A DNA stretch of 64,000 bases from Campylobacter concisus (lineage in GTDB: Bacteria > Campylobacterota > Campylobacteria > Campylobacterales > Campylobacteraceae). A model generated the notes under the pieces. It saw only the letters and a program-made list of their open reading frames with translations. It ran no database searches and was not told the origin of the DNA. This document shows positions 16,043 through 20,533 of this stretch, piece by piece (positions within the stretch are counted from its first letter, which is position 1; every line of letters begins with the position of its first letter). The position numbers and the translations under genes were made by a program. The DNA is taken from contig JAHAKU010000007.1 in assembly GCA_018371535.1 (NCBI GenBank), positions 19,796-83,795 of the forward strand, given 5' to 3'.

Positions 16043-16717
16043 ATGACTAAAGAAGCCCTTGAAGATTTTTGTGACGTCGTCGTAAAGCCAGTAGCTGACG
16101 GCGGCGAGGGCAGCGTGGAGGCTATGGCTGACGCGCTTGATGCTAAATTTATAGATACCATTGTAAAAAACCCACTTGGCACTGAAATTTTAGCTAGATA
16201 TGCTCTAAAAGACGACCTTGCCATACTTGAGATGTCAAGCGCTTCAGGACTTACTCTTATAAATCTTGATGAGAGAAATCCTATGAAAACTAGCACATTT
16301 GGCTTTGGTCAGATGATAAAAGATGCTATTAGTAAAGGAGCTAGGAAATTTATCATAGGTATTGGCGGAAGTGCGACAAATGACGCTGGCACAGGTATGC
16401 TAAGCGCTCTTGGCTTTAAATTTTATGACAAAAATGGCGCTTTGCTTGAGGGTAAAGGTGAGGATCTAGCTCAAATTTGCGAGTTTTCAGATGAAGAGGC
16501 TCTAAAAGAGCTAAAAGAGTGCGAATTCTTAATCGCCTGTGACGTGGATAATCCACTTTATGGACAAAAAGGCGCAGCCTACGTCTATGCCCCACAAAAG
16601 GGTGCAAATGGCCGCATGGTAAAGCAGCTTGATGACGGACTAAAGCACTTTGCGGGGCTTGTAAAAGAGAGATGGCAAGCAAATTTTACTCTGCTCGCCA
16701 AATTTATATCAAACTAG
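16043..16717 (+). pseudogene. truncated duplicate of an internal glycerate kinase segment (residues ~24-230 of the full gene at 20636..21766)
   Basis: about 98 % amino-acid identity over ~207 residues with the full-length gene; different N- and C-termini (MTKEAL… / …ERWQANFTLLAKFISN). Confidence 0.6.
16050..16670. repeat. left copy of a ~620-bp inverted repeat (glycerate kinase internal fragment)
   Basis: near-identical to 21077..21697 in opposite orientation; mirrored antisense ORFs 15913..16296/21450..21797 and 16416..16682/21091..21330 in the ORF track confirm nucleotide-level identity. Confidence 0.8.
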
Positions 16718-19704
16718 CTTATCTTTCTTATCTTTGCAGGAAGTGCTTGTCTAGCGCAAGTACCAACCAGCCAGTCATTTAGGCTAAATTCGCCATTTCT
16801 TTTTGGATCAAGAAGTCCGAGCTTGTTGTGATTGACCCCTTTTTCTAAATTTGCTATCCCAAAAGCTGGCTTTCCATCGACGATGTGCGTTCTTATACCA
16901 AACTCGTCATGGCCAAATCCATGCTCTATGCTGATAACTCCGCTAGCAACGCCGTCAGTTACAAACGCCTCGCCAACTTGCGCTCCATAAGGCGTAGTCA
17001 CTTTGACCTTATCGCCTGAGCGAATGCCCTGCTCGCTCGCTACATCTGGCGCCATCCTTATGAAGTTACTAGGATGGACTGCTCTTAGTCTTGGGCTAAC
17101 AAAGGTGTAGAAGTGCTGGATATTTGACTTTCTTGAACTTACTGTGTATTTCCACTCAGAGCGTGGGAAAAATTTCTCAAGCGGCGTGCCGTCACTTGCT
17201 ACTGGTAGCATCAGGCTTGGCACTCCTGGCATATATTCGCCTGTTACTGAGTGTCTGTGTCCGCCAAGTGGCTCATAGTAGATAGAAGCTGGCGTAGGCG
17301 CTGGCACTTTTACGGTTGCTTTATCGCCCTTGTACGCGCTCTCGTAGCTATCATATCTGCCGCCTTTTGCTAGCACGTGCGCTACTTTTGGCTTCTCTTC
17401 GTCTTTTAGATAAGGATCAAGCTTTGTCATCACTCTTGATATCTTACTAAGCTTTTTGTCCTCGTCGCTTATATCTTTCACCCCCTCGCCGTCAAAGGCT
17501 AAATTTGCTAGTGCAGCCGCATAGTACTGCTCTTTTACGTCAAGGTCCATGAAATTTCCATCTTTGTCTTTGAAGGCGTTTTTGCCAAAGCCTTTTAGTC
17601 CAAGCCTCTTTGCTACGGCTATATAAAACGCCTCAACGTCGATCACGCTGCCATTTTTATCCTTTGCCTGCTTTGAGCTGACGGCTGGATAGCGCACGAC
17701 TGAAGTTTTAGCGATCGTTCCCCAAAGAGAGTTTGGAAGTGCCCAGTTTTCTAAATTTACCCCATCTGGCACGATGTAGTCAGCATAGGCGTTTGTCTCG
17801 TTCATAAAGGCGTCGATACCTACAAAAAGTGGTAAATTTTTACTATCTTTTAGTGCGTCTAAAACCGCTCTTTCAAGTCCTGCTTGGCCGTAAAGTACGT
17901 TTGTCATGTAGTTTATGAAAACTTTTACTTTGTATGGATAGCCAGCCTTGTGGCTTGTAAGCGTTTCATTTACAAGTGGCATAGAGATAGGATACCATGG
18001 CTGAGTTGATGGATAGCCGCTGCCGCCAGCTGCTACTTTGCGCTTATACTCAGAGCTTGTTTCGTAGTATTTGCCTGATCTTGATAAATTTAGACCATTT
18101 GGCTTATAAGCACCCTCAAAGCTCTCAAGGTCATATCTGCCCTTTAAAAACTCGTGTGTGCCGGCACTTGCATTGACGTTGCCGCCCTTAAAGCCGTAAG
18201 TGCCCATTAGAGTGTTTAGACAAAGTATCGCAAAAGTAGTCATACCAGCTTGCGTATGCATCATACCGCCATGCACATTTGTGCTCACCTGTCTGCCGTT
18301 TTTGGTGAAATTTTCGCAAAGCCAGATAATATCTTCAACGCTTACGCCACAAATTTTTGAGTACTCCTCTAAGCTATGTTTATAAGCTGACTCTTTTAAA
18401 AGCTGCATTGAGCTTTTTACCTCGACTTTTTTGCCGTCTATTAAAATTTTACCTTTGTAGTAGAGCTTGGCTGGTTCATTTACCTTGTAGCTTTGTATCT
18501 TGCCATCTTGCGAGCAGACCTGCCACTCGTTATTGATAAGTGCAAATTTGCCGTAGTCTTTGTGACCTTTTTCGGTGATGACTAGATGCGTGGCGTTGCA
18601 CCAGTGTATCTCGCCTGCTAGCTTTGCTTGGTCTAAATTTGGCTGGATAAGGTAGTTTGTAGCGTATTTTTCATTTTCTATGATCCAGCGTATCATAGCC
18701 ATGGCTAGAGCTGAGTCGGTGCCTGGCTTTATCGCTATCCAGCGGCCTTTGTCTGAAGAGGCGTATTTTACAGCGTTTGTAACGCTTGGGTCGACCACTG
18801 CATAGCTAAAGTCATCTCTAGTGCCTCTTGCGTAAGAGAGCATTTTTGCCTGTTTTTGGAAAGGGTTGCCACCATTTGACGGCGAAGTGCCCCAGTAGAT
18901 AACAAATTTAGAGTTTTCATAGTCTGGTTTTGTGTGTGCAAAGCCCTTTGCGTTGTGTGCGATCTTGCCGCCAACCCTAAAGCCACCGCCGCAAATTCCG
19001 CCGTGTGAGTAGTGATTGATAGTGCCAAATGACTTTTTGACAAAGCGATCAACGATGTCTGAGCGTCCGTCATATAGGTAAAAGCTTAAAAGTTGGTTGC
19101 GTTTGGTGCCGTATTCTGGGTTTTCGCTATCGATTAGCTCGTCGCTATATATTGCTCTTAGTCCGTCCACGTGCCCCTCGCCAAAGAGATCTCCGCCCTC
19201 TACGACCTCTTCTACTAGCTGTTCAAAGCTTATGCTCTTCCACTTGCCCTCGCCTCTTTTGCCAACTCTTTTTAGTGGCGTTAGTATCCTTGCAGGCGAG
19301 TCTATCATCTCAGGTAATATCGCTCCTCTAGCGCAAACCGTGGCTCGCTTTTCATCTTCGCCGCTTAGTGTTGTGGCAAGCAAAGCATCGTTTATCGATG
19401 TGTCAAAATTTGCCCAGTGTACGTTTGAGAGTGGGTGATATGGGTTGCCGCTACATCTTAAAACGCGGTCGTTTTTATCATCTACGTGAAGTCTTATGCC
19501 ACACTTCGTTGTACAGCCGTGGCACATAGAAAAGACAACGCTATGTCCGTCGTTAAGTGAAATTTTGCCATCTTTTACACTAAATTCAGGCTCTAGCGAG
19601 TTTGACTGCGGTTTGTAGTCGTCTTTTTCGCCATCTGCTAGCACAGCGCTCGCGGTTAGTGTTGAGAGTACAGCTGATCTTTTTAAAAATTCTCTTCTTT
19701 GCAT
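16714..19704 (-). CDS. Tat-exported molybdopterin (bis-MGD) oxidoreductase catalytic subunit, tetrathionate-reductase-A-like
   Basis: 996 aa; twin-arginine signal MQRREFLKRSAVLSTL…; N-terminal 4Fe-4S Cys cluster (CHGCTTKCG); size matches the TtrA family rather than ~760-aa PsrA/PhsA. Confidence 0.65.
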   Translation of the reverse strand: MQRREFLKRSAVLSTLTASAVLADGEKDDYKPQSNSLEPEFSVKDGKISLNDGHSVVFSMCHGCTTKCGIRLHVDDKNDRVLRCSGNPYHPLSNVHWANFDTSINDALLATTLSGEDEKRATVCARGAILPEMIDSPARILTPLKRVGKRGEGKWKSISFEQLVEEVVEGGDLFGEGHVDGLRAIYSDELIDSENPEYGTKRNQLLSFYLYDGRSDIVDRFVKKSFGTINHYSHGGICGGGFRVGGKIAHNAKGFAHTKPDYENSKFVIYWGTSPSNGGNPFQKQAKMLSYARGTRDDFSYAVVDPSVTNAVKYASSDKGRWIAIKPGTDSALAMAMIRWIIENEKYATNYLIQPNLDQAKLAGEIHWCNATHLVITEKGHKDYGKFALINNEWQVCSQDGKIQSYKVNEPAKLYYKGKILIDGKKVEVKSSMQLLKESAYKHSLEEYSKICGVSVEDIIWLCENFTKNGRQVSTNVHGGMMHTQAGMTTFAILCLNTLMGTYGFKGGNVNASAGTHEFLKGRYDLESFEGAYKPNGLNLSRSGKYYETSSEYKRKVAAGGSGYPSTQPWYPISMPLVNETLTSHKAGYPYKVKVFINYMTNVLYGQAGLERAVLDALKDSKNLPLFVGIDAFMNETNAYADYIVPDGVNLENWALPNSLWGTIAKTSVVRYPAVSSKQAKDKNGSVIDVEAFYIAVAKRLGLKGFGKNAFKDKDGNFMDLDVKEQYYAAALANLAFDGEGVKDISDEDKKLSKISRVMTKLDPYLKDEEKPKVAHVLAKGGRYDSYESAYKGDKATVKVPAPTPASIYYEPLGGHRHSVTGEYMPGVPSLMLPVASDGTPLEKFFPRSEWKYTVSSRKSNIQHFYTFVSPRLRAVHPSNFIRMAPDVASEQGIRSGDKVKVTTPYGAQVGEAFVTDGVASGVISIEHGFGHDEFGIRTHIVDGKPAFGIANLEKGVNHNKLGLLDPKRNGEFSLNDWLVGTCARQALPAKIRKIS

Positions 19705-19717
19705 TACTTGTCTCCTT

Positions 19718-20533
19718 TTACTGTGCTATCTCTTCGCTCCAGCTGATAACCTTTTTATATCCATTATCAAGCTCGAGTTTCTTATCGTTTTTAGCCAAAA
19801 TTTCGCTAACGCCGTGGTAGAACACCTGTGGATTTGTATTTTTAGGGCTATCTATGACCATAGTCTCGTGTGTGGCTAGAAATTTTCTGATATTTGAGTT
19901 AGGATCGTTAAGATCGCCTATTATACGGCTACCGCCCACACAGCTCTCTACGCAGCTGGCTGAAGTCCTGCTCTTAGTCTGTGGTCGCAGAAGGTGCATT
20001 TATCGGCCTTGTAGGTATGCAAGCTAAGATATCTTGCGTGATATGGACAGGCCTCCACACAAAGCGCACAGCCTATGCACTCTTTTGTGTCGATCTTTAC
20101 GATGCCGTTGCTTCTTTGATAGCTTGCCCCTGTTGGACAAACGTCGATACAGGCTGGTTTGTTGCAGTGGTTGCAAAGTCTTGGAAGCGACGCAATGACT
20201 GCCATTTTACCGCTTTTATCCTTTGCCTCGTACTCAGAGACGATGGTCCTAAAAGCACCTGGCTGAACGTCGTTTTCCAACATACAGCTTACATGACTGA
20301 CAGCCAACACATCTTGTTAAATCTATTGCCATGCCGTAGCGAACACCACTACCACTAAAGTCCTTTGGTGCTGCCTTTAGTGCAGTCGTAGCGAAAAATA
20401 GTCCTGCAGCTGCGATAAAACTGCGACGAGAGTTTAGGGTCTGTTGCATAAGAAAATCTCCTTTCTTTTTAGAAGTTTTTCTTATTTTAACATAGTAAAT
20501 TTTTTTTCTAAAGTTTATTTTATATTTTTGCAA
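19718..20533 (-). pseudogene. 4Fe-4S ferredoxin-type electron-transfer subunit (TtrB/NrfC/PsrB-like) disrupted by two frameshifts
   Basis: three overlapping ORFs (20249..20533 with Tat signal RRSFIAAAGLF; 19948..20310; 19718..19999) together reconstruct a ~270-aa four-cluster ferredoxin; junctions at ~20295 (apparent 5-nt loss between taag repeats) and ~19975 (1-nt loss). Confidence 0.6.

Follow-up and report, generated by a model that had tools for sequence, protein, structure and literature searches.

A probable recent loss-of-function allele of ttrB in the tetrathionate reductase locus of Campylobacter concisus

The stretch of Campylobacter concisus DNA analyzed here, a 64-kb window, contains the ttrBA tetrathionate reductase locus of this species, a bacterium of the human mouth and gut, and we are confident that its copy of ttrB, the gene for the ferredoxin subunit, is a real and recent loss-of-function allele; the strain is accordingly predicted to be negative for tetrathionate respiration. 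The system is already known, and the window presents it with an ordinary natural pseudogene allele of ttrB. The parts of the locus that bear on this conclusion are as follows.

16714-19704, minus strand: ttrA, intact catalytic subunit of 996 aa (open reading frame listing, Pfam, NCBIfam).
19705-19717, minus strand: ttrB-ttrA spacer of 13 nt, holding the ttrA ribosome-binding site AAGGAGA (from the sequence).
19718-20449, minus strand: ttrB pseudogene, four-[4Fe-4S] ferredoxin subunit in three frame segments (open reading frames, NCBIfam, alignment to intact alleles).
20289/20290, minus strand: 5-nt deletion, by which TCATGTA[CTATG]AGCTGT loses CTATG, within the first CxxCxxCxxxC motif (CVGCQSCTMSC).
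19954/19955, minus strand: 1-nt deletion, by which GCCAGC[A]TG becomes GCCAGCTG, immediately before the final Cys pair (PACVESC).

Upstream of ttrA, the listing of open reading frames (ORFs) has three overlapping minus-strand entries (20249-20533, 19948-20310, and 19718-19999), and the three fragments match the TtrB model NF011569 consecutively, at positions 22-61, 60-173, and 172-230 of 244. An earlier note on this DNA, made from the sequence alone, had described a ferredoxin gene in three overlapping frames, and both the ORFs and the model matches agree with it. To map the lesions, we aligned the gene to intact alleles from two metagenome contigs, L001 and L002, and checked the coordinates; these contigs encode an intact 245-aa TtrB, and their 996-aa TtrA differs from that of the window at four residues. 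The alignment confirmed that one break is a 1-nt loss, as the note had it, and that the other is a deletion of 5 nt, but the taag repeats proposed to flank the longer deletion are not there, and a check of sequence context found no other repeat and no homopolymer at either site. The breaks also lie at the positions listed above rather than at ~20295 and ~19975.

Adding back the six missing nucleotides yields a TtrB of 245 aa, not the ~270 aa first estimated, with an SRRSF twin-arginine translocation (Tat) motif and 16 cysteines in four groups. Its true start is the ATG at 20449, preceded by the ribosome-binding site AAAGGAGA, rather than the TTG at 20533 chosen on first reading. Because the deletions total 6 nt, the first and last segments of ttrB share a frame; it is not kept by the 113 codons between the lesions, where most cluster ligands lie, and the first frame ends in a stop at 20249. 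The gene thus has the profile homology of a TtrB and, once repaired, its 16 cysteines, but not one continuous frame. Both indels fall within a single 735-nt gene, and ~90% of the remaining window is covered by long, closely packed ORFs.

The catalytic subunit, in contrast to its partner, is complete. The exact 996-aa protein is entered at NCBI as MBS5828368.1, from a metagenome-assembled genome (MAG), under the record name 'MAG: tetrathionate reductase subunit TtrA [Campylobacter concisus]'. The accessions of an AMIN-domain protein and a glycerate kinase immediately flank it in numbering, and this consecutive run suggests that the source annotation probably has no protein accession for ttrB. 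TtrA opens with a twin-arginine signal (MQRREFLK, motif QRREFLK) and contains the Pfam domains Molybdop_Fe4S4, Molybdopterin, and Molydop_binding. The top NCBIfam model is that of TtrA, NF011567 (955.9 bits, model positions 51-1022 of 1022), with PhsA next best at 135.7 bits, followed by DmsA/YnfE at 128.6 and ArrA at 69.7. NF011567 has a curated equivalog cut-off of 1750 bits, which the score of 955.9 does not reach, as fits a diverged epsilon branch with 42-45% identity to TtrA of enterobacteria, Vibrio, and Shewanella; the closest homologs outside that branch, at the same level of identity, come from Shewanella, Vibrio, and Pragia and are annotated as TtrA. Across an alignment of 10 epsilon- and gamma/betaproteobacterial TtrA sequences, the N-terminal [4Fe-4S] cysteines C61, C64, C68, and C124 are invariant, as is C238, the presumed Mo ligand. 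There is no solved structure of TtrA, the nearest solved proteins by sequence being PcrA, PsrA, and ArrA (E ~1e-15 to 1e-12). The uninterrupted 996-aa subunit with a Tat signal and a 4Fe-4S Cys motif that the note had described is therefore upheld by the ORF, Pfam, and NCBIfam evidence.

The substrate, which the note had left as unknown, can be named from work on the orthologous enzyme of the same species. For C. concisus 51562, 10 mM tetrathionate raised the anaerobic H2-dependent cell yield about ten-fold, and a ttrA::cat mutant lost tetrathionate-stimulated growth but kept thiosulfate-stimulated growth; the enzyme was named TtrAB (Benoit & Maier 2018, PMC6155014). The published ttrA (CCC13826_2089 / 51562_0690) is a 2,988-bp ORF in the same B-A layout, all C. 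concisus TtrA proteins fall in one 90%-identity cluster, and tetrathionate is the genetically demonstrated substrate of the orthologue. The published work took its strains as functional wild types; the ttrB of the window has two frameshifting deletions. The same study reported that the ttr genes are absent from some sequenced C. concisus strains and that the species encodes a thiosulfate reductase, tsrABC; neither the absence of TtrC nor the electron donor is a topic of the paper (PMC6155014).

We then asked how widely the two lesions occur. Records of 18 contigs include the 93-aa product that the 1-nt deletion yields out of frame, and we fetched 10 of these contigs. They come from ENA and Logan assemblies of different samples: five biosamples under the record prefixes LOUY21-1 and VALL22-1, three k141 assemblies, SRR13622647, and ERR8482255. 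All 10 have the 1-nt junction and nine have both exact junctions, the tenth (L074) carrying only the 1-nt deletion. Over the locus, the carriers are 96.3-100% identical to the window (0-3.7% difference), a spread showing that they are not re-assemblies of a single sample; one, L071, is 100% identical across 4535 nt. Because both junctions recur in nine other independently assembled contigs, we conclude that they are not assembly errors, which goes against the single restored ferredoxin ORF that the note had allowed for. Elsewhere, ttrB is uninterrupted (243-245 of 245 residues in one frame) in L001-L003 and in 52 of 61 species-representative Campylobacter/Helicobacter loci, with a partial match in three more (L039, L046, and L052) and no match in the other six. 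The 5-nt site is intact in 17 of 17 JGI metagenome matches, none of which has the deletion junction. The broken ttrB is a minority allele that segregates in human-associated C. concisus at a low frequency.

Patterns of variation around the lesions point to a young allele. The double-deletion carriers differ at just 0-3 positions inside ttrB, and a density map of single-nucleotide polymorphisms (SNPs) revealed an SNP-free tract common to them at ~19100-20350, longer in some, with flanks that are 2-5% divergent. Their ttrA genes comprise three haplotypes ~80 nt apart (dS ~0.12, dN/dS ~0.03). The ttrA of the window is nearer to that of an intact-ttrB strain, L004 (48 differences), than to those of other carriers (80 differences), and the nearest intact ttrB (L032) is the same as that of the window across the 3' half of the gene, the missing base excepted. 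In L074, the sharing is confined to ~19500-20000, around the 1-nt deletion, and the 5' half is of the intact type. A shared SNP-free tract within divergent flanks indicates a young allele moved by recombination; the simplest reading would be a recent loss-of-function haplotype whose flanks were reshuffled by homologous recombination onto several backgrounds. Of the two lesions, the 1-nt deletion probably arose first; less probably, the 5-nt deletion preceded it and was later repaired by recombination. Compared with 31 non-carrier C. concisus proteins, the TtrA of the window has zero private amino-acid changes. On the reading of a recent allele, an intact ttrA without private changes would reflect that youth and not continued selection. 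The suggestion in the note of an inactivated reductase caught early in decay is supported by these observations.

The absence of a membrane subunit, by comparison, has no part in this decay. The 13-nt spacer is too small for a ttrC gene, and tblastn with Pragia TtrC gave zero matches in the window and in all 78 loci. Six ORFs of at least 150 aa in the window have at least four predicted transmembrane segments; three of them encode 10-13-segment GntP, Na/H-exchanger, and MMPL proteins, and two others BPD_transp_1 (ATP-binding cassette permease) proteins. Both surveys bear out the statement in the note that no NrfD/TtrC-type gene is encoded. Its other proposal, an unusual two-component arrangement, was right about the two components, but the arrangement is native to the whole Campylobacter/Helicobacter clade and not specific to the window. 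In ~60 Campylobacter/Helicobacter loci, spread over at least four genomic contexts, ttrA directly follows ttrB. The pair stands without NrfD or a ttrSR-type regulator in C. concisus, between glxK and AMIN/eno/recA; in Campylobacter sp. CCUG 57310, Campylobacter sp. MOP7, and the C. showae group, beside a tyrosine recombinase between clpB and ackA-pta; and also in Campylobacter sp. M4, in Helicobacter sp. 13S00401-1, and in an uncultured 64% relative. No conserved third gene (cytochrome, NapGH-like, or NrfD) was found beside the pair in six other contexts, where the neighbors are housekeeping genes or a tyrosine recombinase. In the window, glxK, a GntP permease, PLA1, and a MobA-like gene lie on one side and genes for an AMIN-domain protein, enolase, and RecA on the other; no TtrS or TtrR was found among these neighbors, Pfam having been run on only some of the window ORFs. 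All three 44-45% relatives with fetched context (L065 from Pragia fontium, L076, and L078), by contrast, have the order B-NrfD-A with an NrfD of 364-373 aa; a sensor kinase and a response regulator are encoded alongside in two of them, and a response regulator in the third. Judging from these gene orders, the C-less two-subunit layout is a clade character of Campylobacter/Helicobacter rather than part of the decay. A literature search on TtrC in Campylobacter returned just papers on Salmonella ttrC as a marker for the polymerase chain reaction.

From knowledge of the family, an intact TtrA would hold a bis-molybdopterin guanine dinucleotide molybdenum center and one [4Fe-4S] cluster, and TtrB four [4Fe-4S] clusters. 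Both would be exported folded by the Tat pathway, and in the periplasm TtrB would pass electrons to TtrA, where tetrathionate would be reduced to thiosulfate. In a clade natively without TtrC and TtrSR, electrons would enter through a partner encoded elsewhere, and the analogy with Shewanella ArrAB and CymA leads us to expect an unlinked quinol dehydrogenase. The 5-nt deletion would take two residues out of the first cluster motif, and the 113 codons between the deletions would be misread and run into stop codons, leaving no functional TtrB. Since TtrB is presumably the sole electron path to TtrA, the catalytic subunit would be left without its electron wire, which is the basis for predicting that the strain is unable to respire tetrathionate.

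Several points weigh against this account. The window comes from a MAG, which gives less assurance of linkage over long distances than an isolate would; the loss of tetrathionate respiration in carriers is a prediction and not a phenotype or an expression result; and the partner that would feed electrons to the C-less enzyme is a postulated one. In addition, ttrA is intact in nine of nine full-length carriers and dN/dS between their haplotypes is ~0.03, which alone could suggest ongoing selection. We considered that explanation of the low dN/dS and rejected it in light of the SNP-free tract in mosaic flanks; the mosaic pattern leads us instead to attribute the low value to divergence that would predate the association of these ttrA haplotypes with the broken ttrB.

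There remains a small chance that the broken ttrB is not neutral debris, and that it is spreading by recombination among human-associated C. concisus because loss of tetrathionate respiration is advantageous in some niche or that ttrA is kept because it still works with an unlinked Fe-S/quinol-oxidizing module, the one that would also feed the natively C-less TtrAB. A more specific form, to which we give somewhat less weight still, is that TtrA is useful without its own TtrB and under selection, for instance by borrowing an Fe-S subunit and membrane module from a paralog of the Psr/Phs type (the tsrABC of C. concisus). The native enzyme, being without TtrC, already relies on an unlinked partner for electron input, C. 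concisus does encode the thiosulfate reductase tsrABC (PMC6155014), and the intact carrier ttrA genes with their low dN/dS would fit. However, no observation calls for such a role; judging by the SNP-free tract and mosaic flanks, the allele is so recent that an intact ttrA carries no information, and ttrB is intact wherever it aligned at full length, in a clade spanning 64-100% TtrA identity, indicating that TtrB is normally required. To our knowledge, cross-complementation of B subunits between different Mo enzymes has not been established for the TtrA/TtrB family.

It is very improbable that ttrB is still expressed, whether through programmed ribosomal frameshifting or slippage of transcription at the two sites, or in the form of split polypeptides able to reassemble. 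The deletions do total 6 nt, placing the N- and C-terminal segments in one frame, and ttrA is intact in all carriers, but a total of -6 is what chance gives one time in three once the first lesion is present, and the 1-nt deletion is found alone in L074. Neither site has a slippery heptamer or a homopolymer. Even with the frame restored at the first site, CQSC-x-C replaces CxxCxxCxxxC and the first cluster motif is destroyed, and the middle segment has no start codon and ribosome-binding site placed to make a Tat-targeted fragment.

Frameshift-based phase variation is common in Campylobacter species, and the L074 allele is 'repaired' at the 5-nt site, as reversible switching of tetrathionate respiration in the manner of Campylobacter contingency genes would have it; we nevertheless regard such switching as extremely unlikely, since neither site has a simple-sequence repeat or a homopolymer and 12-14 SNPs, grouped near the 5-nt site, separate L074 from the double-deletion allele, a pattern that indicates recombination and not slippage. 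Just as implausible is an artefact in which spurious indels in a MAG consensus hide an intact ttrB: the window does derive from a MAG, and one other assembly (L061) has many spurious-looking single-base ttrA indels, but the exact junctions recur in nine more contigs from different assemblers and samples with flanks up to 3.7% apart, neither site is homopolymeric, one lesion is 5 nt long, and long ORFs without breaks make up the remainder of the window.

Disrupted ttrA genes in other genomes were considered as a sign of recurrent decay, and this was set aside for L061, the C. concisus RMIT-O23 chromosome. Its ttrA (8001-10978) has eight single-base indels, mostly in short homopolymer runs and probably due to read error, a signature absent from the ttrB lesions of the window. 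The ttrA of L064 (1037-4026) has a single indel of the same kind. That of L052, a MAG of the C. showae group (1020-3988), has a 23-nt deletion and a 1-nt insertion together with a partial or truncated ttrB match, and may represent independent, real decay.

Among the closest known systems outside the species is the Salmonella-type TtrRS-TtrBCA locus (as in L065, L076, and L078). Its full-length A subunit is 42-45% identical and keeps the FS0 cysteines and Cys238, its B subunit has four Cys groups, both subunits have Tat signals, and the reaction is the same. The window, in contrast, has neither ttrC between B and A nor adjacent ttrSR, its scores lie under the NCBIfam equivalog cut-offs, and the epsilon TtrA is shorter by ~12 residues after the Tat signal, 3 near position 45, and ~20 near position 420. 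Shewanella sp. ANA-3 ArrAB (PDB 6CZ7) offers a functional analogy, pairing a periplasmic catalytic subunit that holds molybdenum bis(pyranopterin guanine dinucleotide) with a four-cluster Fe-S subunit and no NrfD-type C subunit. By sequence, few solved structures are nearer to the TtrA of the window, but ArrAB belongs to another clade of the dimethyl sulfoxide reductase superfamily (the ArrA model being the one that scored 69.7 bits) and acts on another substrate. Shewanella ArrAB is fed by an unlinked quinol dehydrogenase, CymA. Finally, TsdA of Campylobacter jejuni, a di-haem cytochrome c tetrathionate reductase/thiosulfate dehydrogenase, has the same role in the same genus but comes from an unrelated family. 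C. concisus is reported to have no tsdA (PMC7059363), and its TtrA is reported not to be homologous to TsdA (PMC6155014).

Other arrangements of these genes came up in the survey. In L076, a canonical ttrSR-ttrBCA locus, genes for a cytochrome c and a SoxA/TsdA-type di-haem cytochrome lie directly downstream of ttrA (8427-10133), so that both kinds of tetrathionate/thiosulfate enzyme are adjacent. A 1397-aa homolog from an uncultured organism (P0061) combines an NrfD domain (PF03916) with TtrA domains and appears to be a natural TtrC-TtrA fusion. At the clpB/ackA-pta site of L003, L040, and L047 (~6000-7100, minus strand), ttrBA adjoins a tyrosine recombinase (Phage_int_SAM_6 and Phage_integrase domains). 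The site of ttrBA in the C. showae group and two other Campylobacter species differs from that in C. concisus, indicating that the module has moved or was independently acquired, although the recombinase could equally be the housekeeping XerH. In the window, a MobA-like nucleoside triphosphate transferase gene (PF12804) lies at 24284-24859 on the minus strand, ~3.8 kb upstream of ttrB, and a gene of this family lies directly beside ttrA in Pragia fontium (L065). The PF12804 family includes MobA, an enzyme of molybdopterin-guanine-dinucleotide synthesis, and a cofactor-supply link is possible.

The locus is also bracketed by a repeat derived from glxK.

16049-16670, plus strand: inverted partial glxK copy (codons ~24-231; 224-aa ORF), immediately 3' of ttrA; a flanking polymorphism, not part of the enzyme.
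20636-21766, minus strand: glxK, intact glycerate kinase gene and upstream neighbor of ttrB, holding the other repeat arm at 21076-21697.

The two arms form a 622-nt inverted repeat, 95% complementary, around ttrBA, and the partial copy stands in place of a 179-nt intergenic stretch of L001. The repeat is polymorphic in C. concisus, being present in the carriers and in the intact-ttrB genomes L005, L006, L011, L026, L050, and L061 and absent from many others; in L011 and L050 it is partly deleted or duplicated. Short metagenome contigs of 4.4-4.9 kb terminate in its arms. We rejected a link between the repeat and the inactivation of ttrB, given its presence in those six genomes with intact ttrB, and also the idea that it drives inversion of ttrBA, as no locus with both flanks showed an inverted configuration. 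On the far side of the partial copy, the AMIN-domain gene (14944-15831, plus strand) has a 30-nt tandem duplication in its coding sequence (15293-15352). Many C. concisus loci give BLAST alignments that are interrupted at ~15323-15326, and L067 encodes a product of 286 aa where the window has one of 295 aa, which suggests repeat copy-number variation in a periplasmic AMIN-domain protein.

Neither the ttrB-null allele nor the C-less clade changes current understanding: the former is an ordinary pseudogene in a known system, and it adds to the reported differences among strains in the presence of ttr genes. Of broader bearing is a question of bioenergetics, namely the route by which electrons enter the TtrC-less TtrBA enzymes of Campylobacter and Helicobacter. 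Tetrathionate is made in the inflamed gut, where it gives Salmonella a growth advantage. A natural ttrB-null lineage would be a ready negative control for the host relevance of tetrathionate respiration in C. concisus.

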